From contig JBDRJV010000017.1 of assembly GCA_043814605.1 (NCBI GenBank), positions 5,445-69,444 on the forward strand: a stretch of DNA of 64,000 nucleotides. Direction: 5' to 3'. Shown piece after piece: positions 4,423-57,085 of this stretch. Positions within the stretch are counted from its first letter, which is position 1. Every line of letters begins with the position of its first letter. Under the pieces are notes generated by a model. It ran no database searches and was not told the origin of the DNA. It saw only the letters and a list, made by a program, of their open reading frames with translations. The position numbers and the translations under genes are program-made. Origin of the DNA: Candidatus Omnitrophota bacterium. GTDB lineage: Bacteria; Omnitrophota; Gorgyraeia; B26-G9.

Positions 4423-6057
4423 ATGAAAAAAATCACTTTTGGCTTAAGAAGAAAACTGTATTTAGCTAGTATGCTGGTTACGATTATCGGTGCGGTAATC
4501 GTATGCTGGTATGTAATAACTTATTATCGGGTAATTATTACAGAAGATTTAGAGAAAAGGGCAATCACCTTAGCTAAAAATCTGGCACATGAATGTATCG
4601 GACCGATTATCTTAAAAGATGAAAACACTTTATTAAGTTTGGTTAATAGGATTTTAAAAGAACGTGATATAATTTATACGGCTATTTATGATAAAGACGG
4701 AAATATTCTCGTTCAAGGCGGGCCTTTTAATATAGAAAACATTCCTCAGTCAGTTAAGAAAAAATCTTTAATCACCCATGTAAATTTAGTACAAAAATAT
4801 TTATCCGCTAAGGAAAATTTAATTTATGATATTAGTGTTCCCCTGCATACTGAGGGTTCATTAGAGAACAATGATTCCGAAGACAAGAGCATAGATGAAG
4901 AAAGCCTTTTTTTCACAGGTGAAGGAAAAGAAAGTTTTAGTGTAAAAGTAGGATTAGCCAGAATTGGTATTTCTTTTAAAAACAGTAACCAATCAATTAT
5001 TATTCACCGTAATAAAATTATTTTTATAAACTTAGTGTTATACTGTATTTTTTTAATACTCATGCACTTTATTGTAAATTCAATACTTATGCCGATCAGC
5101 CTTTTATTAAAAGGAACTCAGAAAATCGGAGCCGGAGACTTGAACTATAAAGTTAGAATTAAAAGCTCAGATGAAATCGGACAACTGGCTGATTCTTTTA
5201 ATAAAATGGTAGACAATTTAAATATTTCGACAACATCCATTGAAAACCTTAACAAAGAAATTATGGAGAGAAAATTTGCCGAAGAAAAGCTAAAAGAAGC
5301 TTATCAGGAACTGAAAGAAGCCCAGCAGCAGCTTTTACAATCAAGTAAACTTTCCGCTATGGGGCAAATGGCCGCAGGCATATCCCATGAACTTAACCAG
5401 CCCTTGACCGGAATTAAAGGGTTTGCACAAATTTTAGCCATGGATTTAGGTAAAGACAGCCCCTATCTTACAGATGTAAATAATATTATTGAACAGGCAA
5501 ACCGCATGGATAGCATCATTCAAAATGTACGTTTTTTTGCGCGAAAATCAGAATTTAAATTAGAGAAATTAAATGTTAATGATCCGATAAAAAATGCAGT
5601 GAACTTACTTCAGGAGCAATTAAAAATACACAGTATCGAATTAATTTCGGAACTTGATCCGGATTTGCCGCAAATTTATGGAGATAATAATCAATTGCAG
5701 CAGATATTTTTAAATTTAGTAACTAATGGCCGCGATGCGATTGAGATGGCCCATAAATCTGAACCGGGAAAAATTATTATAAAAAGCCAGCAATGCAAAG
5801 AAGATAAATATATTTTAGTTACCTTCGAAGATAATGGCTGTGGAATTCATAAAGAAAATTTGGAAAATATTTTTAATCCTTTTTTTACAACAAAAGCACC
5901 GAATGGGGGAATGGGGTTAGGATTATCCATAGTTTATCGAATTGCTGAAAACCATAAGGCAATTATTGACGTTGAAAGTGAACAGGGGGAATTCACTATT
6001 TTTAAAATTATTTTCCCCGTTGCAGATGATTATATTGCCTTTGATAAAAAAGCTTGA
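4423..6057 (+). CDS. Sensor histidine kinase with two TM segments, extracytoplasmic domain, HAMP, HisKA, HATPase_c
   Basis: TM1 near residue 15 and TM2 near residue 200, followed by a HAMP-like linker (GDLNYKVRIKSSDEIGQLADSFNKM). H-box SHELNQPL. N/G-boxes (NLVTNGRDA, GGMGLGLSI). Confidence 0.85.
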   Translation: MKKITFGLRRKLYLASMLVTIIGAVIVCWYVITYYRVIITEDLEKRAITLAKNLAHECIGPIILKDENTLLSLVNRILKERDIIYTAIYDKDGNILVQGGPFNIENIPQSVKKKSLITHVNLVQKYLSAKENLIYDISVPLHTEGSLENNDSEDKSIDEESLFFTGEGKESFSVKVGLARIGISFKNSNQSIIIHRNKIIFINLVLYCIFLILMHFIVNSILMPISLLLKGTQKIGAGDLNYKVRIKSSDEIGQLADSFNKMVDNLNISTTSIENLNKEIMERKFAEEKLKEAYQELKEAQQQLLQSSKLSAMGQMAAGISHELNQPLTGIKGFAQILAMDLGKDSPYLTDVNNIIEQANRMDSIIQNVRFFARKSEFKLEKLNVNDPIKNAVNLLQEQLKIHSIELISELDPDLPQIYGDNNQLQQIFLNLVTNGRDAIEMAHKSEPGKIIIKSQQCKEDKYILVTFEDNGCGIHKENLENIFNPFFTTKAPNGGMGLGLSIVYRIAENHKAIIDVESEQGEFTIFKIIFPVADDYIAFDKKA

Positions 6058-6148: not shown

Positions 6149-6709
6149 ATGCCGGATACCTCTAAAGGTATGCTTTTTAATATGATCCTTAAGTTTATCC
6201 AACAAAAAGGTAAACCGGAATTAATCCATAAAATCAGCGCACAATTGGATAAACCGCTTAAATATATTGATTTTTTTGATTACCCTGTACAAGAATTAAT
6301 GCTGATTACTGAAAAAGCCGCTAAAGGTGTTTTCCCGGATAAAAAAATCGAAACAGCGTTATATACTCTCGCCCGAGAAACATTCACTATTTTAGCGCAA
6401 ACTCCTATCCTGAAAGCAATGCTACCCCGCGCAAAAAGAAATCCGATGAGTGTAGCGCAAAAAATTCCTTTTTTATACAGACAAATCAACTGTTTTGGTA
6501 ATATTTCAGTAGTTGATGTAAAAGAAAAAAGCTGCCGGATAATTTTTAAAAATTATAAAAGTTTTCCCCATTTACAACAAGGATTTTTACAACAAGCCTG
6601 TGATTATTTAGGTTTTATTACTGAAGTCAGTTTAGATATTATTAAGTTTAAAAATAATGGTAACGGGGACATTTTAACTGATTTTGATTTAAGTTTGAAA
6701 TTAAGTTGA
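6149..6709 (+). CDS. Cassette protein A1: ~186-aa conserved hypothetical, putative small-ligand sensor domain (paralog family of 4 in window)
   Basis: ORF with own RBS. 55-65% identity to 7286..7846 and 8327..8887. Conserved blocks TKGMxFN, GKPLKYIDFFDY, FKNYxSxPxLQQGFLQ, NNGNGDI. No TM segment or signal peptide. Confidence 0.7.
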   Translation: MPDTSKGMLFNMILKFIQQKGKPELIHKISAQLDKPLKYIDFFDYPVQELMLITEKAAKGVFPDKKIETALYTLARETFTILAQTPILKAMLPRAKRNPMSVAQKIPFLYRQINCFGNISVVDVKEKSCRIIFKNYKSFPHLQQGFLQQACDYLGFITEVSLDIIKFKNNGNGDILTDFDLSLKLS

Positions 6710-6731
6710 TTTTAAATCAGAGGAGGGTTCT

Positions 6732-7103
6732 GTGGGTAACCGCATAAAGTGGATAGTGTACAAGAACAAACGAATTCTTTTCCACGATTACTCAGGCATT
6801 AGAGGGTTTCAGGGTGAAGGGGAGCAATTAGCACAAGAGGTGAATGAGTTTGTAGAGAAATTGACAGAATATAATATTTTAGAATTAGTTGATGTAAGGA
6901 ATTCATTTGGTGATTTAGAATCAGTAAAAAGGCTTAAAGAAATATCTAAACGATTAAAGCCGCGCATAAAAAAATCTGCAGTAATCGGCGTTAGCGGGAT
7001 AAAAAAAGTTATTTTAGATGCAATTAATACTTTTTCCGAAAGAAAAATTAAACCGTTTAAAACTGAGGAAGAAGCAAAAGAATGGCTGATTTTGGAAGAT
7101 TAA
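6732..7103 (+). CDS. Cassette protein B1: ~123-aa STAS-like (anti-sigma-antagonist-like) protein, GTG start
   Basis: AGGAGGG RBS 4 nt before GTG. Conserved LELVDVRNSFGDLESV (resembles the DLSxVxFxDSSG phosphoserine loop) and a C-terminal …EEEAKEWL helix typical of STAS/SpoIIAA fold. ~70% identity to the copy-2 partner. Confidence 0.6.
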   Translation: MGNRIKWIVYKNKRILFHDYSGIRGFQGEGEQLAQEVNEFVEKLTEYNILELVDVRNSFGDLESVKRLKEISKRLKPRIKKSAVIGVSGIKKVILDAINTFSERKIKPFKTEEEAKEWLILED

Positions 7104-7145
7104 ATCGTTTTAAAGGTTTATAATATTATAATTTTTGGTTTATAC

Positions 7146-7240
7146 ATCCGCGGCCTAAAACCGCGCCCATTTATGGCGCGGATAAAAGGAGGCCGCTTGA
7201 GTATTCCACCCCAGGAACCACGGGCTTTAGCCCGTGGGGG
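7146..7240. repeat. GC-rich nested palindromic element (two strong hairpins) in the intergenic spacer between cassette copies 1 and 2
   Basis: Inner stem CCGCGCC-catttat-GGCGCGG (7161..7181) is nested inside GCGGCC…GGCCGC (7150..7196). A second hairpin CCACGGGC-ttta-GCCCGTGG lies at 7218..7237. GC content is far above local background. Confidence 0.45.
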
Positions 7241-7285
7241 TTACATTTCTGGATAATTTCTAAAAAGAAATCGAGAGAATTTTAA

Positions 7286-7846
7286 ATGCCGGCAACAACA
7301 AAAGGAATGTTTTTTAATGTGGCTTTTAAACTGATTACGGCAAAAGGTCACGCGGAATTAATAGAAAAAATCAGTAAAAAGCTGGGCAAACCTCTTAAAT
7401 ATATTGATTTTTTTGATTATCCCATAGAGGAATTTATGCTGATTGTCGAAGAGGCGATTAAATATATTTACCCGGATAAAAAATTCGAAGAAGCATTATA
7501 TATTTTATCCGAAGAATCATTTGACCTGATCATGCAGACCCCGATAATTAAAGCAGTATTATCCGGAGCAAAGAAAAATATGCAAAATATTGCAAAACGC
7601 ATTCCTTTTATCTATGAACAATTCAATCACTTTGGAAAAATTTCTATTATTGATTTAAAAGAAAAAAACTGTGTGATTGCTTTTAAAAATTATAAAACTT
7701 ATCCGGAACTGCAGCAGGGTTTTTTACAAAGAACCTTTGATTTTCTAAAGCTTAATCACACTGTAGAACTAAACATCCATAAATTTAAAAATAATGGAAA
7801 CGGCGATATTACCGCTGATTTTGATATAAGCTTAAAATGGGGTTAA
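7286..7846 (+). CDS. Cassette protein A2 (paralog of 6149..6709)
   Basis: Same conserved blocks and length (186 aa) as A1. Own start context. Confidence 0.7.
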   Translation: MPATTKGMFFNVAFKLITAKGHAELIEKISKKLGKPLKYIDFFDYPIEEFMLIVEEAIKYIYPDKKFEEALYILSEESFDLIMQTPIIKAVLSGAKKNMQNIAKRIPFIYEQFNHFGKISIIDLKEKNCVIAFKNYKTYPELQQGFLQRTFDFLKLNHTVELNIHKFKNNGNGDITADFDISLKWG

Positions 7847-7868
7847 TTTTTTATAAAGGGTGGTTTAT

Positions 7869-8240
7869 ATGACTAATCGGATAAGGTGGATAGTATATAA
7901 AAACAAGCGTATTCTTCTAGTTGATCTTTCTGGGATTAGAGGGTTTAAGGGCGAAGGGGAGCAATTAGCAAAAGCCGCGGCTGATTTTGTGGATAAATTA
8001 AGAGAATATGAGCTCATCGAATTAATTGATGTCCGGAATTCATTTGGTGATTTAGAATCAGTGAAAACAATGAAAGAACTATCTAAAAAATTAAAGCCGC
8101 ACATAAAGAAATCTGCAATCATTGGAGTAAGTGGGATAAAAAAAGTTATTCTCGATGCGATTAATTCTTTTGCCGAAAGAAAGATTAAACCGTTTAATAC
8201 AGAGGAAGAAGCAAAAGAATGGCTGATTTTAGAAGATTGA
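7869..8240 (+). CDS. Cassette protein B2, STAS-like (track start 7860 is GTG; ATG at 7869 preferred)
   Basis: MTNRIRWIVYKNKRIL…VRNSFGDLESVK…EEEAKEWLILED. ~70% identical to B1. Confidence 0.6.
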   Translation: MTNRIRWIVYKNKRILLVDLSGIRGFKGEGEQLAKAAADFVDKLREYELIELIDVRNSFGDLESVKTMKELSKKLKPHIKKSAIIGVSGIKKVILDAINSFAERKIKPFNTEEEAKEWLILED

Positions 8241-8326
8241 ATGTTAAAAAATTTTAAAGCATTAAAGGTTTAATAATTATTCGCTGAATTATTTAAATAA
8301 TAACTATTATGGGGAAGAGATTTTAA

Positions 8327-8887
8327 ATGCCAGAAACAGCAAAAGGTATACTTTTTAATGTAAATTTAAAATTCATTAAAAATAAGAATAAACCAGAATT
8401 ACTGGAAAAAATCAGTAAAAAGCTGGGCAAACCGCTTAAATATATTGATTTTTTTGATTATCCTGCCCAGGAATTATTGGTTATTGTTGAGGAAATTGCT
8501 AAAAATATTTTTCCCCATAAAAAAACTGACGAAGTTTACTATTTATTAGCACAGGAAAACTTTGCCACTCTTGCGCAAACACCGATTCTAAAAGCAATGC
8601 TGCCTCGCGCAAAAAAAAATCCGCGGATTATTGCGCCAAAAATTCCGTTTTTATATAAGCAAATTTACCGCTTCGGAGAAATTTCTGTGGTTGACCTAGA
8701 AGAAAAAAGCTGCCGTATAGTTTTTAAAAATTATGTTAGTTTGCCGCAGTTACAACAGGGTTTTTTGCAAAAAGTTTCTGATGTATTAGGGTTTAATCAT
8801 AAAGTAGGCTTAAATATCCACAAATTTATAAATAATGGTAACGGAGACATAAAAGCAGATTTTGATTTAACCCTTCGCTGGGATTAA
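8327..8887 (+). CDS. Cassette protein A3 (paralog)
   Basis: 186 aa, same conserved blocks. Confidence 0.7.
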   Translation: MPETAKGILFNVNLKFIKNKNKPELLEKISKKLGKPLKYIDFFDYPAQELLVIVEEIAKNIFPHKKTDEVYYLLAQENFATLAQTPILKAMLPRAKKNPRIIAPKIPFLYKQIYRFGEISVVDLEEKSCRIVFKNYVSLPQLQQGFLQKVSDVLGFNHKVGLNIHKFINNGNGDIKADFDLTLRWD

Positions 8888-8919
8888 AAATACTTAATTA
8901 TAAGGAGTAATAAAGTTTT

Positions 8920-9291
8920 ATGAGTAACCGCATACGCTGGATTGATTATAAGGGAAAAAAAATACTTGTGCACGATTATTCTGAACTTAAAGGATTTAAT
9001 AGGGGGGGAGAACAAGTTTTAAATGAAGTGTCTAATTTCATTGATAAATTAACTGAGAATAATATACTCGAATTAATTGATGTGAGAAATTCTTATGGCG
9101 ATTTAGACTCAATAAAAAAAATGAAGGAAATGTCCAAAAAAATGCAGCCGCATGTAAAGAAATGTGCAATAATCGGGGTGACGGGTGTAAAAAAAGTTCT
9201 TTTAGATACAATTAATGTTTTTTCCCAGCGCCAGATTAAACCGTTTGCCACAGAAGAGGAAGCCAAAGAATGGCTGGTGGCTGAGGATTAG
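8920..9291 (+). CDS. Cassette protein B3, STAS-like
   Basis: 123 aa with NSYGDLDS loop and C-terminal EEEAKEWLVAED. More diverged than B1/B2. Confidence 0.6.
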   Translation: MSNRIRWIDYKGKKILVHDYSELKGFNRGGEQVLNEVSNFIDKLTENNILELIDVRNSYGDLDSIKKMKEMSKKMQPHVKKCAIIGVTGVKKVLLDTINVFSQRQIKPFATEEEAKEWLVAED

Positions 9292-10020: not shown

Positions 10021-10056
10021 TATAGCGGTTGGAATATTACCATACAATTTTATTAA

Positions 10057-10085
10057 GGGGATAGTCTTATAGCTATCCCTTTTTT
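10057..10085 (+). terminator. Intrinsic terminator (GGGATAG-loop-CTATCCC + T6)
   Basis: 7-bp stem, 8-nt loop, TTTTTT run directly after the 9766..10020 gene. Part of a 37-bp element repeated at 13387..13423. Confidence 0.6.
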
Positions 10086-10086
10086 A

Positions 10087-10115
10087 TTGACTAAATGTAA
10101 AGATAGGAGTATGAT
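10087..10115 (+). promoter_or_regulatory. Near-consensus sigma70-type promoter TTGACT-17 nt-TATGAT
   Basis: -35 TTGACT at 10087..10092, exact 17-nt spacer, -10 TATGAT at 10110..10115. AGGAGGG SD at ~10150 precedes ATG 10163. Confidence 0.5.
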
Positions 10116-10478: not shown

Positions 10479-10894
10479 TAAGGTTTTATGAATTTTGATA
10501 ATTTTTGATGTAAATAGACATCTATATGGACACCAGGTAGATGGGGCTACAGAGAATCTAACCCCAGTGGGCATATGAGACTTTTATCTTACATTAGTTC
10601 AATAAATACTTGACAATTTATTAAAATATGAGGAAGAAGTGGCGAAAATAGCGGCGGAGAACGAGTAGATATGAAACAATGGCGGAAGAAAAATAAAAGA
10701 GGAGATTTAAGATAGAAAGGGGCTATGCTGCCCCTTGAAGATAAATGAAGCGCAAAGCACCCTTGCCTAAACATTGCAAATTATCTAATGATAATTTGCT
10801 ACTAGGCTACGGGCATAAATTAGAACTTATTACTTATGTCACTTTGTTCCATAAGCAATGTTCTCATTTAGAAAACAGCCCTGGGAAACAGCGA

Positions 10895-11075
10895 TGATTT
10901 TCTAATGGTTTACTCACTACGACTTCGCTGCCAATTCGGCAGTCCTGCCTCAATGGCGTTCGTCCTGGCTGCATCTTCGTTCCTAAACCAAAGAAAATTA
11001 CCTGTCTCGCCGTGTTTGTGGCGGATATCGCTTGGTTTCAAAAGGGGATTAACAAAAGTTAAACCCTTTTAGTAT
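10895..11075 (+). promoter_or_regulatory. Candidate structured cis-regulatory RNA (GC-rich island in the 5' leader of the radical SAM gene, ending in hairpin AAAAGGG…CCCTTTT)
   Basis: About 50% GC inside a ~30% GC leader. Several local stems (CTGCC-aattc-GGCAG; CGCC-gtgtttgt-GGCG). The terminal 7-bp stem with U-tract at ~11040..11075 lies 85 nt before the start codon. No match to riboswitch classes I can recall. Confidence 0.3.
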
Positions 11076-11158
11076 ACTTGATAACAATAATGAAACATGG
11101 TATACTTTAATATTCAAACCTGTATAAAATAATATAATTAATTGAAAATAAAAGAGTT

Positions 11159-13345
11159 ATGATTAAAATTCGGATATTTAAAAGAGTTGTATCTATGATC
11201 TTACTGCAAGCCTTTTTGTTCGGGGCAGTTAGGTCAATCTATGTCTATGCTCAGGAACAGTCAATACTGAGTCCTCGAATAAGTTTGGGCCAGCCTGACT
11301 TGCAAACAGCAATGACCGAAAAAATGTCTTTAGCGCACTTTCCACCGTTAGATATTAGAGGAATAATAAAAGTAGGAAGAGGAGCAATAATATCAAAATC
11401 TTTGGTGACTAAAGAGGATCAAGCGTCCCAAGTTTTTTTTAAGAAAGCTTTACAGGGACTAGAACAGATCGAAACGATACAATGGTTTATAAATTTAAGA
11501 TGTGTTCTTAGATGCGATCACTGCTACTTAACACCAGAGCAGAAGAAAATGCCTCCTACCTCTTATCAGCAAGTATTAGATATTAGTAAAAAGATCAATA
11601 AACTCCCTGGGATTAAAGGAGTGGTAATTAACGGAGGGGAACCTTTTGCTAACCTTAAATTGATATATTTAGCATTAAAGGAATTAAAAGTACCAAAAAT
11701 AGGCCTTATGACTAGTGGTTTTTGGGCGAAAACACCTTTTATTACCAGTCGTGTTCTTGAAAATATAGTTAACGCTGCGGGAGATAAACACTTAGTTCTA
11801 CAAGTTAGTGTTAACGAATTTATTATGAAACAAAGAACCAAAAATAAAAAGCTTGGGTTTACTTTAGATAACTGGGTTAATATTATTAGGACTGTTGATG
11901 AACAATATTCTAAGAAAATTACTTTAGTGATTACATCTTTCTATAATGATCCAATATTCAATCAGTTAAAAAAGAAAATAGAGGACGAGGGTCTTAAAAT
12001 GCCTGAAGTCCGCAGATCAATAATGGAGTTTATTGGGCCAGCAGGAACCAACTTAGAGCGCAATGAATATAAGCAATGGGTTAATGTAGATAGCGCAGAC
12101 ATTTTTGTCCACAATAAATCTTTAGCAATCTATCCAGATGGGAAAGTAACTGTCGCTGCAGAGTTTTTAGGAGTATTAGAGGCAGGGAATATTTGTAAGC
12201 AGGGATTCCCAGACATTATTGATAATATTAATAAAGATTCATTATTCTACTTTGTTTTAACCAAGAAGGAACCAGCCAGACAATTATTAAGGATGGCTGC
12301 TCATTTTAACCCTGAGCTTGTAAATAAATGTAGCGATGAAATACTAGATGCTCCTAAAATTAGATTGCTGTTAGAAGATCCTATATTGAGATATTGTCTT
12401 AGAAAATTGGTGATTTGGAAGCTCTATAATGAACATGAACTTTTATTCATTGATGAAGATATGAAAAAATATGTCAACAAGCCTATTAGTGAGTTTATGT
12501 TGGAATTGGATAGAGAATACACTGGTCAAAAACAAGAAAAAGGAGAAGACGTAACCATAGTTAGTCTAAAAGATAAAATAATTATAGATTGGTTTGATAT
12601 TTCTAATCCAGCCACAGATTGGAAGAAAATATTTGGTAACAATAACAATCCCCAGGAACTTATAATTGGAAGTCTTTCGAGGTCTATGATCAAAGAAGCC
12701 CAAAAAAATCTTGCCAAGAATTATATCTGGGTTCAAACAATAAATCCTGCAGATACTACATATTTTATTGAGAAAGAAATTAGAGAAAAAAACATTCAAA
12801 ATGTCCGGTTAATCGATGCAGACATAAGAACGGCTATCCAGTCGATGTTTACCTTCGAGCAGATTTCTAATCTTTATGTATATTATACAGGAGCTGACAA
12901 ACGGATAGAAGAGTTTGAACGGCAAAAGTCAGGAGGAATGTATTATTCTGCTGATCCATATCTGCGGCATTTATATATAGAGATGCAGCAATCAGAATTG
13001 CAATATCCACCAAAAGGCTATTGGTTGGATTTTAGACAAGAAGGTTTATTACAGCGATTTTTAACCGTCATAAAAACAGGAGGTGTTTGTCATATCAGCA
13101 GCTGTGTTAGTGACTACATCGCTAGTGTTACCCGTATGATTGATTCTCATAAAATGGACATTCAGACTTTTGATAAGCCTAGTATGTTACCGGAAATAGG
13201 AGTCAACATAACTAATTATCTGGGGATTAGGAAAATACTACCTCTGAGTCCAAGTTGCTTAACGACCGCGAATGTTTCGATTCCTCAATTAAGAGCGAAC
13301 CCCGCTGGGACTTATCAATCGAAAATTATACAGAGTAGTATATAG
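11159..13345 (+). CDS. Atypical large radical SAM domain protein (728 aa) with N-terminal hydrophobic segment and ~450-aa C-terminal extension of unknown function
   Basis: CxxxCxxC motif CVLRCDHC at residues ~115-122, followed by a G-rich SAM-binding-like segment GVVINGGEPF. No SPASM/twitch Cys cluster seen. N-terminus MIKIRIFKRVVSMILLQAFLFGAV is hydrophobic. Confidence 0.75.
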   Translation: MIKIRIFKRVVSMILLQAFLFGAVRSIYVYAQEQSILSPRISLGQPDLQTAMTEKMSLAHFPPLDIRGIIKVGRGAIISKSLVTKEDQASQVFFKKALQGLEQIETIQWFINLRCVLRCDHCYLTPEQKKMPPTSYQQVLDISKKINKLPGIKGVVINGGEPFANLKLIYLALKELKVPKIGLMTSGFWAKTPFITSRVLENIVNAAGDKHLVLQVSVNEFIMKQRTKNKKLGFTLDNWVNIIRTVDEQYSKKITLVITSFYNDPIFNQLKKKIEDEGLKMPEVRRSIMEFIGPAGTNLERNEYKQWVNVDSADIFVHNKSLAIYPDGKVTVAAEFLGVLEAGNICKQGFPDIIDNINKDSLFYFVLTKKEPARQLLRMAAHFNPELVNKCSDEILDAPKIRLLLEDPILRYCLRKLVIWKLYNEHELLFIDEDMKKYVNKPISEFMLELDREYTGQKQEKGEDVTIVSLKDKIIIDWFDISNPATDWKKIFGNNNNPQELIIGSLSRSMIKEAQKNLAKNYIWVQTINPADTTYFIEKEIREKNIQNVRLIDADIRTAIQSMFTFEQISNLYVYYTGADKRIEEFERQKSGGMYYSADPYLRHLYIEMQQSELQYPPKGYWLDFRQEGLLQRFLTVIKTGGVCHISSCVSDYIASVTRMIDSHKMDIQTFDKPSMLPEIGVNITNYLGIRKILPLSPSCLTTANVSIPQLRANPAGTYQSKIIQSSI

Positions 13346-13386
13346 GAACGAAAAAGAAGTTAACTTCAGCAATATATAAACATATC

Positions 13387-13423
13387 AAGGGGTAGTATTC
13401 GGGCTATCCCTTTTTTATTGACT
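13387..13423 (+). repeat. Second copy of 37-bp terminator-like element (AAGGGG…CTATCCCTTTTTTATTGACT), direct repeat of 10055..10092
   Basis: About 32/37 identity with the copy at 10055..10092, including the T6-ATTGACT tail. Here the stem is degraded by a 1-nt deletion and there is no -10 element. Confidence 0.45.
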
Positions 13424-13673
13424 TAACTAGTAGCATAAGACTCCGAACCATCAGAGAGATAGTTAGTTGACTTTTCTTGCCAAAAACTTTAAACTAATTG
13501 TAATATTTTAATTTAACATTTATCATTCGTAATTTATAATTTGTCACTTGTCATTTGCCCCAAATGATGCAACATCTTTAGAGAAATCTTCGGGGGCCCG
13601 AAGAAAAACTTCTCTGGATATCCACATTCGGGATAATTTGTAATTCCCTCCAAAGGAGGGCGTGGGGTCATGG

Positions 13674-13749
13674 CGCAGTTGGGAGCGCGCCTCGTTCGCA
13701 ACGAGGAGGTCGGGGGTTCGAATCCCCCTGACTCCACCAAAAAAAATAA
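13674..13749 (+). tRNA. tRNA-Ala (anticodon CGC), CCA encoded
   Basis: Hand-folded cloverleaf: acceptor GGGGTCA/TGACTCC with G3:U70 wobble (Ala identity element), D-arm GCGC/GCGC, anticodon stem CCTCG/CGAGG with loop TTCGCAA, T-arm GGGGG-TTCGAAT-CCCCC, then ACCA. Confidence 0.85.
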
Positions 13750-13926
13750 ACCCTCGACCTCAAAAAGGGGATTTTAAGGGGAAAGATTGTTTCCCCTTAT
13801 CAGGGTATTAGAACTTCTTTGCGGAAGGAAAAGGACCAGTCCCGGCATAGGCGGGACGATAGGGGAAAACCTTAAGGGTTGTCCCCTATAGAGCGAATAA
13901 AATGAGCGATGAGGGCGGGGTTCGAA

Positions 13927-13957
13927 TCCCCCTGACTCCACCAAAAATGAGCAGAAG
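13927..13957 (+). repeat. 31-bp direct repeat of the tRNA-Ala 3' end (GGGGTTCGAATCCCCCTGACTCCACCAAAAA), att-site-like scar
   Basis: Identical to 13723..13753. Lacks the 5' half of the tRNA. Copies lie 204 bp apart. Confidence 0.6.
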
Positions 13958-14294: not shown

Positions 14295-15038
14295 TTGAAG
14301 AAATATGTTATAATAAAAGCTATGAAAAATAATAAATTATATAAAATAAAAGTCTTCCTGGTTTTACTAACTGTGAGTATTTTATTTGGGTTGTGTATTA
14401 AAAATGTCTACGCTGAGGTTAATGTAGGTGCAACCCGTGAGGAAATCATTGCAACTTTCGGACAACCTACAGGAACCATGAACAGCGGGGATGAAGAAAT
14501 ATTAACTTATCCCGGAGGATTAATTGTTTTACGTGATGGAGTTGTTCAAAGTATGGATGATAAATTTAGCGAACGCTTAGCAGCACGGAAAAAAGAAAAT
14601 GAATTTGAACAAAAACAGAAAAAAAACGGGTTTATACAGTATTTGGGCCAATGGGTTACCCCGCAAAAGAAAAAGAATATTGAAGTAAATAAAAAGTTGG
14701 AAAAGAAAATTTTTGTCTATTCACAGGGAGGGCAGGAAATTGCAATAAATGAGTTACTTGTGCCGGATAAAATTACCATTGTGGATTTTTATGCTGACTG
14801 GTGCGGGCCTTGTAAAGCCATGGGGCCTAAACTGGAAAAACTGGCACTCTCTGATCCTGATGTTTATTTAAGAAAAGTTAATATTATAAAATGGGGCACC
14901 CCGGTTACAAAACAGCATCGGATCAGGGCCATTCCGGATGTACGCGTATTTACACGCAAAGGATATTTACTGGGTAAACCAACACACAGCATTCAGGAAG
15001 TGGAGCAGTTCGTTAAAGAGGCAAAAGATATCCGTTGA
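14295..15038 (+). CDS. Exported thioredoxin-family protein (signal/TM anchor + C-terminal thioredoxin fold)
   Basis: N-terminal hydrophobic segment. WCGPCK active-site motif within a thioredoxin-like block. Confidence 0.75.
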   Translation: MKKYVIIKAMKNNKLYKIKVFLVLLTVSILFGLCIKNVYAEVNVGATREEIIATFGQPTGTMNSGDEEILTYPGGLIVLRDGVVQSMDDKFSERLAARKKENEFEQKQKKNGFIQYLGQWVTPQKKKNIEVNKKLEKKIFVYSQGGQEIAINELLVPDKITIVDFYADWCGPCKAMGPKLEKLALSDPDVYLRKVNIIKWGTPVTKQHRIRAIPDVRVFTRKGYLLGKPTHSIQEVEQFVKEAKDIR

Positions 15039-53622: not shown

Positions 53623-54249
53623 ATGCCGATGAAAAAAGACAGCTTTCAAGGAAAACAGGCTAAAATGTCTCTTTTTTCAGCATTTTCAATTATAATGCTG
53701 ATACTAATTATAGTTTCTGCCTGGATATTACTGGAACAAGCGCAGAATTTATATTGGGATCATTTTATGTCCAAAAGAAAATTTAAAAAGCATCAAATCG
53801 GAATTTTTCATAAAAATAATATATCAGTATGGGATAAAATTAAGAACAATCTGGAAACTTTAAATAGAAAAACTGAATTAAACAATAATATTAAAACAGT
53901 TATTCAGCTGCTTGAAAAATATGCTAGAGCGCAAGAAATTTATTATAAAAATTATGGGATTTACGCAGAAAATTCAGCTTCTTTAATTATTAAGGCTCAG
54001 GATGGGCAATTTCAGCTTATCGATGCCGATTTAAAGGTGATATCAATGTCCAATAGCAGGCAAGAACCATATTGCGGTTATACGTTTAAACAAGCCATAA
54101 TCAAGGATTCTAATCAGAAAAGCACAGGATTCACATTATTCGCAATCCCAGCCAAAAATGAGTTAGCCGGTCCTAATATTCTATGTATAGACAATCAGGG
54201 AATAGTAAAATATGATCACCCTAAAGGGGAAGCAGTTACGGTTTTCTGA
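53623..54249 (+). CDS. Hypothetical N-terminally anchored protein
   Basis: Single TM. Not a clear prepilin (no G-F-T-L-x-E). Confidence 0.45.
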   Translation: MPMKKDSFQGKQAKMSLFSAFSIIMLILIIVSAWILLEQAQNLYWDHFMSKRKFKKHQIGIFHKNNISVWDKIKNNLETLNRKTELNNNIKTVIQLLEKYARAQEIYYKNYGIYAENSASLIIKAQDGQFQLIDADLKVISMSNSRQEPYCGYTFKQAIIKDSNQKSTGFTLFAIPAKNELAGPNILCIDNQGIVKYDHPKGEAVTVF

Positions 54250-54653
54250 TAATTAGCCATAAATCCATAACTCATTGAAAATCCGTCGGAAAAGCATTCT
54301 CGAGAACATACGATTAAGTTAACATAACATATATTATAGGAAGTTAGCTAAATTATGGGATTGCCTCCCAAATATGCTAATTTTAAGGGATTTGGCTTTT
54401 AGGGTTCGTTCTGGAACTTATCCAGAGGTTATCCCCAGGCTTGTGCGGTGTCTCTGAGATTCAACAGTGTTGATCGTGTGGTGTAGAATAAATACTGCGT
54501 GCGGCGTATACCTAATTAGACGTCCTCCCCAGTAAACAACTTTACTCCCATGATTATCTATGAGTAAGCATAATAAATAAAATAGTAAAAATTAGAAATG
54601 ATTGGTTATTTTAGGTTTTTATTATATTTTTGAAGTTAATAGACTGGTTATTT

Positions 54654-55376
54654 TTAAAAATAAGCATTAAAATGATGCTCAATCTCATCAAGAATATTCA
54701 TATCTAATCTAAAAGCCATAAAATTAACCGAAGAATTCAGTTTAACCAAGGCATTCAGCACTGCATCTTTATCTACAATATTACGTAATTTTGCACAAAA
54801 ATTTTGATTAACTGCCTGGATTTCATCAAAAGTTTTATTAAGCTTAATTAAATCCCAATCGCCGCTAATTCCCTTTCGGTTAAGAAAATATTGTGCGAGT
54901 AAATACATGGTAATCATCCGGTACATTGTTTCTTCTGTTGTGGCAAACGGCAAGTGATATCTGACCATGGGTTTTAATTTTTCCATAACCGGACAGCCGC
55001 TGGTAACCATATATATCCCCATTAAGGAACTTAACCCTATTTGTAAGGATGTTTCTTTAAAAAAAGAACGCTCTTTTGTTTGAATGGAAAGGTCCACCTC
55101 AGTAAAAGAAATTGAATCCTGAAAAGAACCAACCAGGTCTAAAAGATTTAAAACAACAGGACAATAACCGCCATATTCACTCTTTTCCAAACTACAACTG
55201 GAGCACTTAAAATTCTCAAGCTTCGCCCATTCCGGACCGGCTAAAATAGATTTTTGCTTAACCAAATGTAAATTATTATCTAATTTTACCGTAAATTCTT
55301 TTGCCGAACCATCCTTAAACTTAAATAAATAATTAAAATTAATCGTTTCATTTTCTCCCGGATTTAAAAAATTCAT
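54654..55376 (-). CDS. Hypothetical protein (240 aa) with CxxC and GYCP motifs
   Basis: ORF, convergent with upstream gene. No family recognised. Confidence 0.45.
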   Translation of the reverse strand: MNFLNPGENETINFNYLFKFKDGSAKEFTVKLDNNLHLVKQKSILAGPEWAKLENFKCSSCSLEKSEYGGYCPVVLNLLDLVGSFQDSISFTEVDLSIQTKERSFFKETSLQIGLSSLMGIYMVTSGCPVMEKLKPMVRYHLPFATTEETMYRMITMYLLAQYFLNRKGISGDWDLIKLNKTFDEIQAVNQNFCAKLRNIVDKDAVLNALVKLNSSVNFMAFRLDMNILDEIEHHFNAYF

Positions 55377-55537
55377 TCCTCCCCCTTTAATTTTTTTAAG
55401 TTTATTAGTAAATTATATCTCAGAAAAACCCAAATCCCAAACATTTTTTTCTGCGCTGCCGAAGTTGACTTTTCAATCCGCAGCCCTAATTTTTATTTTC
55501 TTTAAAAAATAAAAAAAATAGTGTAAAATAATTTTAT

Positions 55538-57085
55538 ATGAGAAGGAAAACTCTGACAATATTTTTTGCGGATGTGCAAGGCTATACTATCCGCACTGGG
55601 CGTCAGACCAGAGAGCAAAACGAAATTTTCGTAAAAGAAATCCGCACTTTTGTTGAAGATAATATTAAGGAAAAAGGCGGCACTTTTGTCAAAGCCATGG
55701 GTGATGGATTTCTGGGGACTTTTGAATCCCCTACGGATGCTGTTGGCTGCGGCCAGCAAATGCAGAAAAAAATTGATGAACGCAATTCTAATGTACTCAG
55801 ACAAGATAATTTTATCCGGTTCAGGATAGGAATCAGTACAGGTGAAGTCACTTTGGATGATTCCGGTGATGTTTTTGGTGATGCGGTAAATATCGCTGCC
55901 CGTATTCAAAAATTCGCATCTCCGAATGATGTTTATATTTCTGAGGCCACTTACCTGGCCATGAATAAATCTGAAATTAAAGCCCAGGATTTAGGCCCGC
56001 AAAGATTTAAAAATGTACTCCACGAAATCAGAGTTTATAAAGTTTTTCAGGGCTTGCCGGAATTATCCGAGTTGCCCTTAGGTCCTGATAAAAACAAAAA
56101 ATCTCCCTTTTTAAAAAAGATACTAATCCCCGTTGCAATTATTACAGTTATCGTAGTTTTATTCTTATTTCTAAAGAGCCTCTCCCCTGCCCGCCTTAAT
56201 AATAAAGAATATAATTTTGAACATAATTATCAGCCGGATATTGAAAAATTAATGGCTGATGGCAATTTCGGACCGATTATTGGCTGGGCGGAAAGCCAAT
56301 TAGAAAAAACCCCGCAGGATATAAATATGCATGAATTATTAGCAGAAGTTTTTCAAAAAATGCGCGACTGGGATCAAGCTGAATTTCATTTGAAAAGTAT
56401 TGCAGAAATAGTTCCGAATGAGCCTTTTGCCTATATGGCCATGGCAGATATTTTTGAACAAACTGGGCGTAATGAACAGGCAATTCAAATGCTGGCTGAA
56501 TATATTAATCGCGAACCAAATCAATATAAACGAAGAAAAGCACTTGACCGCATGAAGGATATTGAAGCCAGAATTAAAGAACAAGCCTTAGAGCTTAATC
56601 AGCATACACCGACAGAATATAAACCACAATATAATAATCAGCCTCTGCCAGCGCCTTACCCTAATGAAAATAATCAAAATAACGCTTTTAGGGATTCACG
56701 CGATTGGCGAGAAAATGCTCCTATTCCTGACATTCAAAGATTAATGCAAGAAGGAAATTATGGGGAAATAATTGAGTGGGCTCAAGGCGAACTTGAACGA
56801 AATCCGGATAATTTAGAAGCCCATGAGTTATTAAGCAGAGTTTATTTGGAAATGCGAAACTGGGGACAAGCCGAAATGCATTTAAGAGAAGTGATGCAGA
56901 TGATGCCTGATAATACCCTGCTTTATTTTCGCTTAGCGGTGATTTACGAAAAGGCCAACCAAATCGATAATGCTATCCATACATTGCGTTTGTTTATAAA
57001 TAAGGAAAATGATCCGCAAAAAAAACAAAAAGCAATCCGAAAAGTAAAGCAATTAGAACGCCGTAAATACCATCCTCAATTTTGA
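55538..57085 (+). CDS. Class III adenylate/guanylate cyclase (CHD) – TM – tandem TPR-like modules
   Basis: FADVQGYT, metal-binding Asp, GDGF, and FRIGISTGEV…GDAVNIAARI blocks. One TM at ~190. Two ~150-aa internally repeated TPR-like segments. Confidence 0.8.
   Translation: MRRKTLTIFFADVQGYTIRTGRQTREQNEIFVKEIRTFVEDNIKEKGGTFVKAMGDGFLGTFESPTDAVGCGQQMQKKIDERNSNVLRQDNFIRFRIGISTGEVTLDDSGDVFGDAVNIAARIQKFASPNDVYISEATYLAMNKSEIKAQDLGPQRFKNVLHEIRVYKVFQGLPELSELPLGPDKNKKSPFLKKILIPVAIITVIVVLFLFLKSLSPARLNNKEYNFEHNYQPDIEKLMADGNFGPIIGWAESQLEKTPQDINMHELLAEVFQKMRDWDQAEFHLKSIAEIVPNEPFAYMAMADIFEQTGRNEQAIQMLAEYINREPNQYKRRKALDRMKDIEARIKEQALELNQHTPTEYKPQYNNQPLPAPYPNENNQNNAFRDSRDWRENAPIPDIQRLMQEGNYGEIIEWAQGELERNPDNLEAHELLSRVYLEMRNWGQAEMHLREVMQMMPDNTLLYFRLAVIYEKANQIDNAIHTLRLFINKENDPQKKQKAIRKVKQLERRKYHPQF

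Follow-up and report, generated by a model that had tools for sequence, protein, structure and literature searches.

EpeE/YydG of Bacillus subtilis is a radical S-adenosylmethionine (SAM) peptide epimerase (PDB 8AI1–8AI6; NCBIfam TIGR04078) whose operon also encodes the precursor peptide EpeX/YydF, together with a peptidase and an ABC transporter. Its auxiliary [4Fe-4S] cluster sits in a 'T-SPASM' domain defined by an upstream Cys, a CC pair and a C-terminal CxxC (PMC13012085). Two further residues carry the epimerization chemistry: Cys223 donates the H atom that inverts the Cα radical, and Asp210 acts as a proton relay (PMC5682303, PMC13012085). We analysed a 64,000-nucleotide stretch of DNA from a Candidatus Omnitrophota bacterium (contig JBDRJV010000017.1, positions 5,445 to 69,444; hereafter the window), which carries a gene for a 728-amino-acid protein (P0001, the query) whose closest characterized relative by sequence, family model and fold search is EpeE/YydG. 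The protein has three parts: a signal-like N terminus, a radical SAM module and a tail resembling TrmB, the tRNA m7G46 methyltransferase. We consider it probable, though well short of certain, that this gene encodes an active, signal-bearing radical SAM enzyme derived from the EpeE/YydG scaffold that does not epimerize and that carries a non-catalytic tail derived from TrmB.

The open reading frame (ORF) runs uninterrupted on the + strand, as an earlier note on this DNA had described, and codon-position GC is coding-like in all three segments of the protein. NCBI lists the same frame as MFH1459569.1, a 716-amino-acid version labelled 'radical SAM protein' that starts at M13 (11195), where AAAGAG is located 8 nt upstream. 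An internal Met that had been offered as an alternative start at 11309 is misplaced; the actual Met codons lie at 11312 (M52) and 11324 (M56), and no Shine-Dalgarno-like sequence is found upstream of either. The genome has a GC content of 34%, and the last 280 codons of the gene lie in DNA of 35–38% GC, where a stop-free frame of this length has a chance probability of about 2e-10 and none of 20,000 shuffled sequences stays open. This absence of stops, together with the codon-position GC pattern, indicates that the C-terminal domain is kept as coding sequence.

The radical SAM module is matched by Pfam Radical_SAM (PF04055) at a marginal score (31.7 bits, compared with a gathering score of 29.5) over residues 114–249. 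A module of ~370 residues is common to the query and two full-length relatives, P0002 and P0003, and residues 330–470 are assigned to it because they are conserved in both of these proteins. Features that are invariant in the module include C..C.HCY, NGGE, T..(F/Y)WA, S.N.F, FIG.A, P.G, G.I, L.YF and (R/K)Y.L. The three Cys residues of the cluster motif (C115, C119 and C122) are conserved throughout the clade, as are H121 and Y123. The CVLRCDHC motif is located where the earlier note had placed it, with NGGEP downstream of it (residues 158–162). The note had also excluded a SPASM/twitch cluster and a B12-binding signature, and no Pfam or NCBIfam match contradicts it. Specifically, no B12-binding family was found in the query with Pfam and NCBIfam at E values up to 1, the SPASM model PF13186 is unmatched, and the six further Cys residues (346, 391, 413, 644, 649 and 700) fit no SPASM/twitch pattern.

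Relationship to EpeE/YydG is indicated by several comparisons. A phmmer search of the PDB matched EpeE at an E value of 0.002 over query residues 102–369, and among NCBIfam models TIGR04078 ranks first for the query (29.9 bits), for P0002 (50.5 bits), for P0003 (39.5 bits) and for two more distant proteins described below, P0017 (44.5 bits) and P0040 (35.3 bits). These scores lie far below the equivalog cut-off of 300 bits and therefore indicate a relationship of scaffold rather than family membership. Two intermediates, P0004 (124.5 bits) and P0007 (93 bits), match the model over its full length. When a full-length AlphaFold2 (AF2) model of low confidence (mean predicted local distance difference test score, pLDDT, of 42.9) was submitted to Foldseek, nine EpeE chains (8AI1–8AI6) ranked first with E values from 1e-9 to 5e-8, and SuiB was the next structural family at 1.6e-5. 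Because the structure models are of low confidence, fold-search results are used here as supporting evidence only. The query and EpeE have in common the CX3CX2C motif near the start of the module, the GGE motif, the strand motif (S/T)NGFW(A/G), a 'P-DG' loop and, after the barrel, a helical extension of the 'L.YF(L/V)' type. In contrast, the N-terminal signal-like segment and the C-terminal TrmB-like domain are present in the query and lacking in EpeE.

Residues that serve the later steps of EpeE catalysis are missing from the clade. The cluster residues were compared in an alignment of the clade with a YydG fragment (residues 26–285) and twelve more distant hits. YydG and all twelve of these hits keep the CC pair and a Cys ~15 residues before the 'DG..Y.CC' loop, and the twelve also keep the C-terminal CxxC, a column that lies beyond the end of the YydG fragment. 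At the CC position the clade reads V-A-A (query), V-D-N and L-G-S, and the upstream Cys and the CxxC are gone in the query, P0002 and P0003. The V-A-A sequence stands at the position of Cys222 and Cys223, and therefore both the H-atom donor and one cluster ligand are absent. Furthermore, the query has K-S-L where EpeE has G-Y-D at Asp210, and the branch motif S-x-D-x-(F/Y)-H reads S-(V/L)-N-x-F-(I/V) in the query, P0002 and P0003. With the auxiliary-cluster Cys residues, Cys223 and Asp210 all lost, the thiol-quench route to epimerization used by EpeE is closed to the clade. The half of the active site that generates the radical is intact and invariant, whereas the radical-resolving half of EpeE is gone. 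The setting of the gene also differs, as the query gene looks monocistronic and no EpeX/YydF-like precursor, peptidase or ABC transporter was found near it.

Relatives of the query are exceedingly rare. A word-indexed homolog search of 5.8 billion clusters with the full protein returned the query alone, and the same type of search with a clade profile gave nothing beyond it. An exhaustive phmmer search of 1.84 billion representatives yielded three matches below 1e-10: the query itself, P0002 (407 amino acids as annotated, 33% identity, spanning query residues 106–452) and P0003 (964 amino acids, 26% identity, with the homologous module at its C-terminal end). The other 91 matches (E values from 1e-9 to 1e-3) cover the radical SAM core alone, and residues 453–728 are matched by none of them. 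One weak phmmer match, P0006, is a 135-amino-acid protein truncated by a contig end with 42% identity over residues 99–170; it is closest in likeness to P0002 and is counted as a fourth clade member, a fragment. P0001, P0002 and P0003 each form a singleton cluster among about 15 billion sequences, and no further full-length members were found by clade-profile scans of 185,579 species genomes, 241 million metagenome records and IMG/VR. The first 540 residues of P0003 show no homology to the C-terminal domain of the query. These searches show that the clade comprises about four members. The earlier description of an atypical and possibly novel radical SAM protein is therefore apt, given a tiny undescribed clade with two full relatives and one fragment in 1.84 billion representatives, and no confident full-length homology to a characterized subgroup with the same domain order was detected.

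Other known systems resemble the query less closely. The SPASM/twitch peptide maturases (AlbA, SuiB, PqqE and anSME) have a similar generic radical SAM core and account for weak NCBIfam matches to many models, but the query lacks their Cys-rich motif, and no RRE/PqqD-like domain was detected with Pfam or NCBIfam. Prokaryotic viperins show weak core similarity, with scores of 24.7 bits (pVip, PADLOC PDLC02903) and 20.3 bits (NF038283) compared with a cut-off of 180 bits. Membership in the pVip group or another defence system was considered and rejected: what similarity there is stays within the generic N-terminal core, the gene does not lie in a defence island, and models of the YydG family outscore the viperin models in every case. 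A sibling subfamily of 500–583-amino-acid 'GFWAK' radical SAM proteins (P0005, P0010, P0017 and P0082), like the query, has a YydG-like core without the CC pair. However, these proteins keep S-x-D-x-x-H, carry a long conserved helical C-terminal domain ('EEEKTRLYLAIRVLQDYIQEGRIS') and have no TrmB-like domain. The sibling subfamily (locus L067) is uncharacterized. At L066:1283-9725, a distant relative of 855 amino acids, P0040, shares the 'FEDP..Y..K.L' helix of the clade and is encoded directly after a 1903-amino-acid fusion protein, a possible dedicated electron donor that combines ferredoxin, NADH-dehydrogenase 51K and pyridine-nucleotide oxidoreductase domains.

The N terminus of the query has the layout of a Sec-type signal, here assigned by inspection. 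Basic residues (K3, R5, K8 and R9) form the n-region, an h-region of ~15 residues follows (VVSMILLQAFLFGAV), and V and A occupy positions −3 and −1 relative to the predicted cleavage site (V-Y-A/Q, where the slash marks cleavage). Kyte-Doolittle 19-mers reach 1.78 in residues 1–31. The hydrophobic, signal- or transmembrane-like N terminus pointed out in the earlier note is thus real, and it is conserved in the clade. Indeed, P0003 begins with ...KELVKTIIITIIISCLCQNIILA/GNN and P0006 with MNNYKYKFKLVYLLTLISCICIKLHSVSS/DFLAPAGYSE. For P0002 (MFH1283626.1; L001:9863-10001) the annotated start is probably too far downstream, since the frame is open for 49 codons further up, and this extension reads MKLFFCSFISILILCNSSPNIYA/DYKLSPIGVSE. 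Once the P0002 start is corrected, a signal-like N terminus is present in all four clade members. Because its relatives begin likewise, the signal segment of the query is not an artefact of start-codon choice. A non-conserved linker of ~65 residues joins this segment to the radical SAM module. Two members of the sibling subfamily, P0017 and P0082, also have a signal- or transmembrane-like start, and in both the CX3CX2C motif lies at residue 115 as in the query. No twin-arginine (Tat) motif is present, as RR does not occur in the N termini of the query, P0002, P0003 or P0006. Assignment as a lipoprotein was rejected: the N terminus of the query has no Cys, and lipobox-like I(I/L)SC sequences occur in P0003 and P0006 and in neither the query nor P0002.

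In several relatives a short motif, L[STA]PxG[ILVYFM][ST]E, lies directly after the predicted cleavage site. Strict copies are LSPIGVSE (P0002), LAPAGYSE (P0006) and LTPPGISE and LSPPGLSE in genes adjacent to that of P0002 at locus L001, and P0003 has a relaxed version (LAPEPFTE). In the six-frame ORFs of the window and 64 other loci, 746,000 residues in all, the strict motif occurs at three distinct places, all at L001, where each copy follows the signal peptide of one of a set of adjacent genes (the radical SAM gene and those for proteins of 429 and 381 amino acids); P0006 is an independent case. The sequence is possibly an N-terminal signal for sorting or processing that has gone undescribed.

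Several observations at these loci concern related N termini. Five adjacent genes at L001:9863-19373 (contig JBDROU010000081.1) encode a signal-peptide-like start followed by the looser pattern L-[STA]-x-x-x-[ST]-E, with the copies LSPIGVSE, LTPPGISE, LAVPAFTE, LTKIQSE and LSPPGLSE. Their products are P0002 (with the corrected start) and proteins of 429, 360, 1349 and 381 amino acids; three of these four companions have no Pfam match, and the 360-residue protein has a borderline Enkurin match at threshold. Downstream of the P0003 gene, L002:12908-14323 encodes a protein of the iPGM/metalloenzyme superfamily in which a signal peptide is followed by WAPLTERVK, resembling LAPEPFTERLK in P0003. 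In the window, a 247-amino-acid thioredoxin-fold protein (14295-15038; WCGPC) has a signal peptide ending in NVYA/E, like the YVYA/Q of the query.

The region of ~450 amino acids that the earlier note regarded as uncharacterized and without a family resolves into the EpeE/YydG-type helical extension and a probable, degenerate TrmB-like fold. Pfam Methyltransf_4 (PF02390) scores 21 bits with the full protein (residues 484–576; gathering score of 24) and narrowly passes that threshold with the isolated domain (24.4 bits, E value of 2.3e-5). The NCBIfam TrmB model TIGR00091 matches the same residues at 25 bits (E value of 1e-5), which misses its equivalog cut-off of 112.65 bits, and the B. subtilis TrmB (BsTrmB) structures 7NYB and 2FCA are matched at E values of ~1e-3. 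Alignment with a profile of 36 Bacillaceae TrmB proteins by hhalign gave a probability of 89.7% and an E value of 1.9e-6 for residues 480–579. A greedy hhalign alignment extends further, pairing GGVCHISSC with GGEIHFKTD and NITNY with NIMTEY, and implies an insertion of ~45 residues after β4, although alignment of this second half is of low confidence. A combined alignment of the query, its radical SAM relatives and TrmB proteins was discarded, as MAFFT aligned the TrmB sequences with the radical SAM region. An AF2 model built on the TrmB alignment (mean pLDDT of 52.6) is confident for residues 484–574 alone (pLDDT of 69–91, with the rest below 50). Foldseek ranked BsTrmB first for this model (E value of 1.7e-4, TM-score of about 0.3), a match that is partly circular because the model was built from the TrmB alignment. 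Residues ~480–579 also share with TrmB the 'ISNPA..W..FGN.NP' signature, 'NYI' and 'NV+L'. Together, these sequence comparisons make homology of this segment to the TrmB fold likely.

The functional motifs of the domain are degenerate. The acidic SAM-binding residue after β2 lies in GIE in TrmB and is replaced in the query, which reads WVQ; FSDPWPKxRHxKRR corresponds to YTGADKRIEEFERQ; and KTD reads SSC. In the low-confidence second half of the alignment, a 'NIT.Y' remnant is all that persists of NIMTEY. Methylation and tRNA binding by Escherichia coli TrmB require D144, H151, R154, R155 and D180, and T179, T217 and E220 are listed as further catalytic or tRNA-binding residues (PMC10130221). 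In the query, D144, H151, R154, R155 and T179/D180 are not conserved, the full set with T217/E220 is not retained, and functional equivalence to TrmB is, on motif content, not likely. An isolated CxxC reported near the end of the protein is in fact CX4C (C644-x4-C649, CHISSC). TrmB stands alone, whereas the copy in the query is fused behind a radical SAM module. The domain is absent from P0002 and P0003, and it is thus regarded as an accessory of this Omnitrophota lineage. The features of the gene and protein are collected in Table 1.

Table 1 Features of the query gene and its product, with positions in the window
Feature	Position	Strand	Description
Overlapping sigma-70-like promoter candidates (two)	11049..11106	+	10/12 matches each; in a stretch of 18–19% GC; identified by consensus matches alone
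Whole ORF	11159..13345	+	728 amino acids plus stop; query protein P0001
Sec-type signal peptide or signal anchor, MIKIRIFKRVVSMILLQAFLFGAVRSIYVYA/QEQ	11159..11251	+	Residues 1–31; assigned by inspection
LSPRISLG	11267..11290	+	Residues 37–44; degenerate copy of the post-signal motif
Radical SAM module, EpeE/YydG-like branch	11441..12568	+	Residues ~95–470; partial TIM-barrel core and helical C-terminal extension
CVLRCDHC	11501..11524	+	C115-x3-C119-x2-C122; predicted ligands of the SAM-binding [4Fe-4S] cluster
NGGEP	11630..11644	+	Residues 158–162; GGE SAM-binding motif; N-G-G-E invariant in the clade
TSGFWAK and SVNEFI	11711..11824	+	Residues 185–191 and 217–222; signature of the wider YydG-like branch, and replacement of S-x-D-x-(F/Y)-H
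YPDGKVTVAAEFLG	12131..12172	+	Residues 325–338; position of the EpeE 'DGEIYPCC' loop, with V-A-A for the Cys222/Cys223 pair
Probable degenerate TrmB-like class I methyltransferase fold	12596..13258	+	Residues ~480–700; 480–579 (β1–β4) well supported, second half tentative
IIGSLSRS	12662..12685	+	Residues 502–509; replaces TrmB motif I E-V-G-T-G-K-G-Q; Gly-rich SAM loop lost
YVYYTGADKR	12875..12904	+	Residues 573–582; replaces TrmB 'YLNFSDPWPK'; catalytic Asp (E. coli D144) and RHxKRR not conserved
C644-HISS-C649 (CX4C)	13088..13105	+	Aligned to TrmB β5 'GGEIHFKTD' in the greedy hhalign alignment
Intrinsic-terminator-like hairpin and T-run	13387..13412	+	10 base pairs; 42 nt after the stop codon

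The query gene looks monocistronic: promoter-like sites precede the start codon by no more than ~110 nt, and a strong terminator-like hairpin follows the gene. A 770-bp spacer lies upstream, and the earlier note had spoken of a long regulated leader. The spacer exists, but an Rfam scan gave no match at the gathering score or at E values up to 10, and no similarity to the upstream regions of homologs was found. Within it, a GC-rich island at 10850-11050 (45–48% GC, compared with 18–30% around it) folds no better than shuffled sequences on both strands (z values of −1.75 and −1.72). Thus, a regulated leader is not supported. The island may represent the remains of a gene or an RNA of unknown type.

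Neighbouring genes are unrelated to the query gene: they encode pairs of DUF2378 and SpoIIAA-like proteins, a small membrane protein, tRNA-Ala, the signal-peptide thioredoxin-fold protein and a GH1 glycosidase. A 74-amino-acid helical ORF upstream lies behind its own terminator and has no counterpart found near homologs. [quoted passage not shown] A search for a conserved neighbour among six loci (the window, L001, L002, L065, L066 and L067) found none.

Several other features of the window are recorded here in their own right. Two terminator cassettes (10051-10095 and 13383-13426) match at 84% over 45 nt and have the hairpin AAGGGG...CCCTT and the tail TTTTTTATTGAC in common. They bracket a 3.3-kb segment that comprises the 74-amino-acid ORF, the 770-bp spacer and the gene for the radical SAM protein. 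A tRNA-Ala(CGC) gene (13664-13739) is located 320 nt downstream of the ORF, and the next protein gene is that of the thioredoxin-fold protein. The 3′ half of this tRNA (13702-13743) is repeated ~205 bp downstream at 13907-13947 (39 of 42 nt), which looks like an att-type remnant of integration or excision at a tRNA gene. Three tandem repeats of a gene pair, encoding a protein of 186 amino acids and then one of 123–126, occupy 6149-9291; the first 186-amino-acid protein matches DUF2378, the first and third small proteins match SpoIIAA-like (STAS-type) domains, and a HAMP histidine kinase (4423-6057) is encoded upstream. At ~54000-56000 the GC skew turns from positive to negative and close to that point the coding strand changes from + to −; a terminus or origin region of replication, or the boundary of an inversion, would fit this pattern.

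If the query is an active enzyme of the kind proposed at the outset, C115, C119 and C122 would hold a [4Fe-4S] cluster that binds SAM, aided by the GGE motif, and reductive cleavage of the bound SAM would generate a 5′-deoxyadenosyl radical. This radical would abstract an H atom from the substrate, and the substrate radical would be resolved by a way other than the thiol quench of EpeE. The sequence gives good grounds to predict that the query is active in SAM cleavage and H abstraction, and a peptide or protein would be the most likely substrate because the nearest characterized relatives act on peptides. The TrmB-derived Rossmann domain would most likely serve as a non-catalytic binding or scaffold module. 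The sequences themselves show the domain architecture, the motif content, the rarity of the clade and its conserved signal-like start, whereas activity, class of substrate and location are inferences from them. Several points weigh against this interpretation. Neither a substrate gene nor a conserved neighbour was found in the six loci, which leaves ancestry as the ground for proposing a peptide or protein substrate, and a family of only about four sequences lends little weight to statistics of conservation. Confidence is low for both structure models, and the TrmB-like model is driven by the TrmB alignment and does not resolve the second half of the domain. Furthermore, the signal-peptide call was made by eye. 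Activity is also difficult to square with a Sec-type signal, as a [4Fe-4S]/SAM enzyme draws on SAM, low-potential reductants and an Fe-S assembly machinery that are cytoplasmic, and radical SAM enzymes are regarded as strictly cytoplasmic.

The signal nevertheless invites the alternative that the protein is an exported enzyme or effector whose Sec signal is cleaved and which works in the periplasm, at the cell surface or in a host or prey cell, receiving its cluster, SAM and electrons outside, with the post-signal motif acting as a sorting tag shared with co-secreted neighbours. We regard this as rather unlikely. The n/h/c layout of the segment, an h-region of 13–15 residues that is too short for a typical transmembrane helix, and I or V at −3 with A at −1 in the query, P0002 and P0003 all favour cleavage and export, as does the occurrence of the strict motif exclusively behind signal peptides of adjacent L001 genes, one of them for a radical SAM protein, with P0006 as a separate instance. 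According to a preprint, moreover, long proteins of Omnitrophota often join cytoplasmic-type enzyme domains, including radical SAM, to signal peptides or transmembrane segments (10.64898/2026.06.07.730766), so that a signal on a radical SAM enzyme may be a habit of this lineage. Against export stand the cytoplasmic supply of cofactors noted above, the lack of a twin-arginine motif, which means that export in a folded, cofactor-loaded state by the Tat route is not indicated, and the degenerate copy of the motif in the query itself. In addition, we know of no extracytoplasmic radical SAM enzyme. The sequence features thus argue for export whereas radical SAM biochemistry argues against activity outside the cell, and the protein may be either exported or membrane-tethered. 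The broader proposal of a small family of Sec-exported radical SAM enzymes that act outside the cytoplasm of the producer and share the sorting motif L[STA]PxG[ILVYFM][ST]E, and that in relatives are co-encoded with other secreted 'cytoplasmic-type' proteins carrying it, we consider unlikely.

Two further explanations centre on the tail. Enzymes of the MiaB, RlmN and TYW1 types fuse a radical SAM core with an RNA-binding domain, and by analogy the TrmB-like domain might dock a tRNA or another RNA while the radical SAM module acts on a nucleotide. Homology to a tRNA methyltransferase and the nearby tRNA-Ala gene fit this idea, but the tRNA-binding and catalytic residues of TrmB are not conserved, other clade members do without the domain, the core groups with peptide-modifying rather than RNA-modifying enzymes and a tRNA enzyme would not be expected to carry a signal peptide, so that we give an RNA-modifying role a very slim chance. 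Also very improbable, in our estimate, is a decaying gene in a reduced genome, in which a radical SAM gene was accidentally fused to a trmB pseudogene and the tail, or the whole, is without selected function. The degenerate catalytic motifs, a fusion unique to one metagenome-assembled genome, the lack of conserved context and the hints of a rearranged region (two near-identical terminator cassettes and a tRNA gene with a duplicated 3′ half) are what decay would leave behind. However, the 728-codon frame is intact in a genome of low GC content, including the long stop-free stretch over the tail, the radical SAM core motifs are all intact and invariant across the clade, and the codon-position GC signal is coding-like throughout.

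These findings map the domains of a protein whose current annotation says no more than 'radical SAM protein', and they flag a probably mis-called start codon in its relative P0002. The proposed ancestry would mean that the EpeE/YydG scaffold can shed its auxiliary cluster and thiol donor and yet keep its radical-generating core, which implies chemistry other than epimerization, and the fusion with a catalytically stripped TrmB fold would exemplify a methyltransferase domain reused as a probable binding module. Of greatest interest is the combination of a conserved Sec-type N terminus with the shared post-signal motif. A clade-wide signal of this type challenges the strictly cytoplasmic view of radical SAM enzymes or points to unrecognized membrane tethering. 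If the proteins do form a Sec-exported family in these possibly epibiotic bacteria, they would be, to our knowledge, the first extracytoplasmic or effector-type radical SAM enzymes, and their motif would be an undescribed N-terminal sorting signal.

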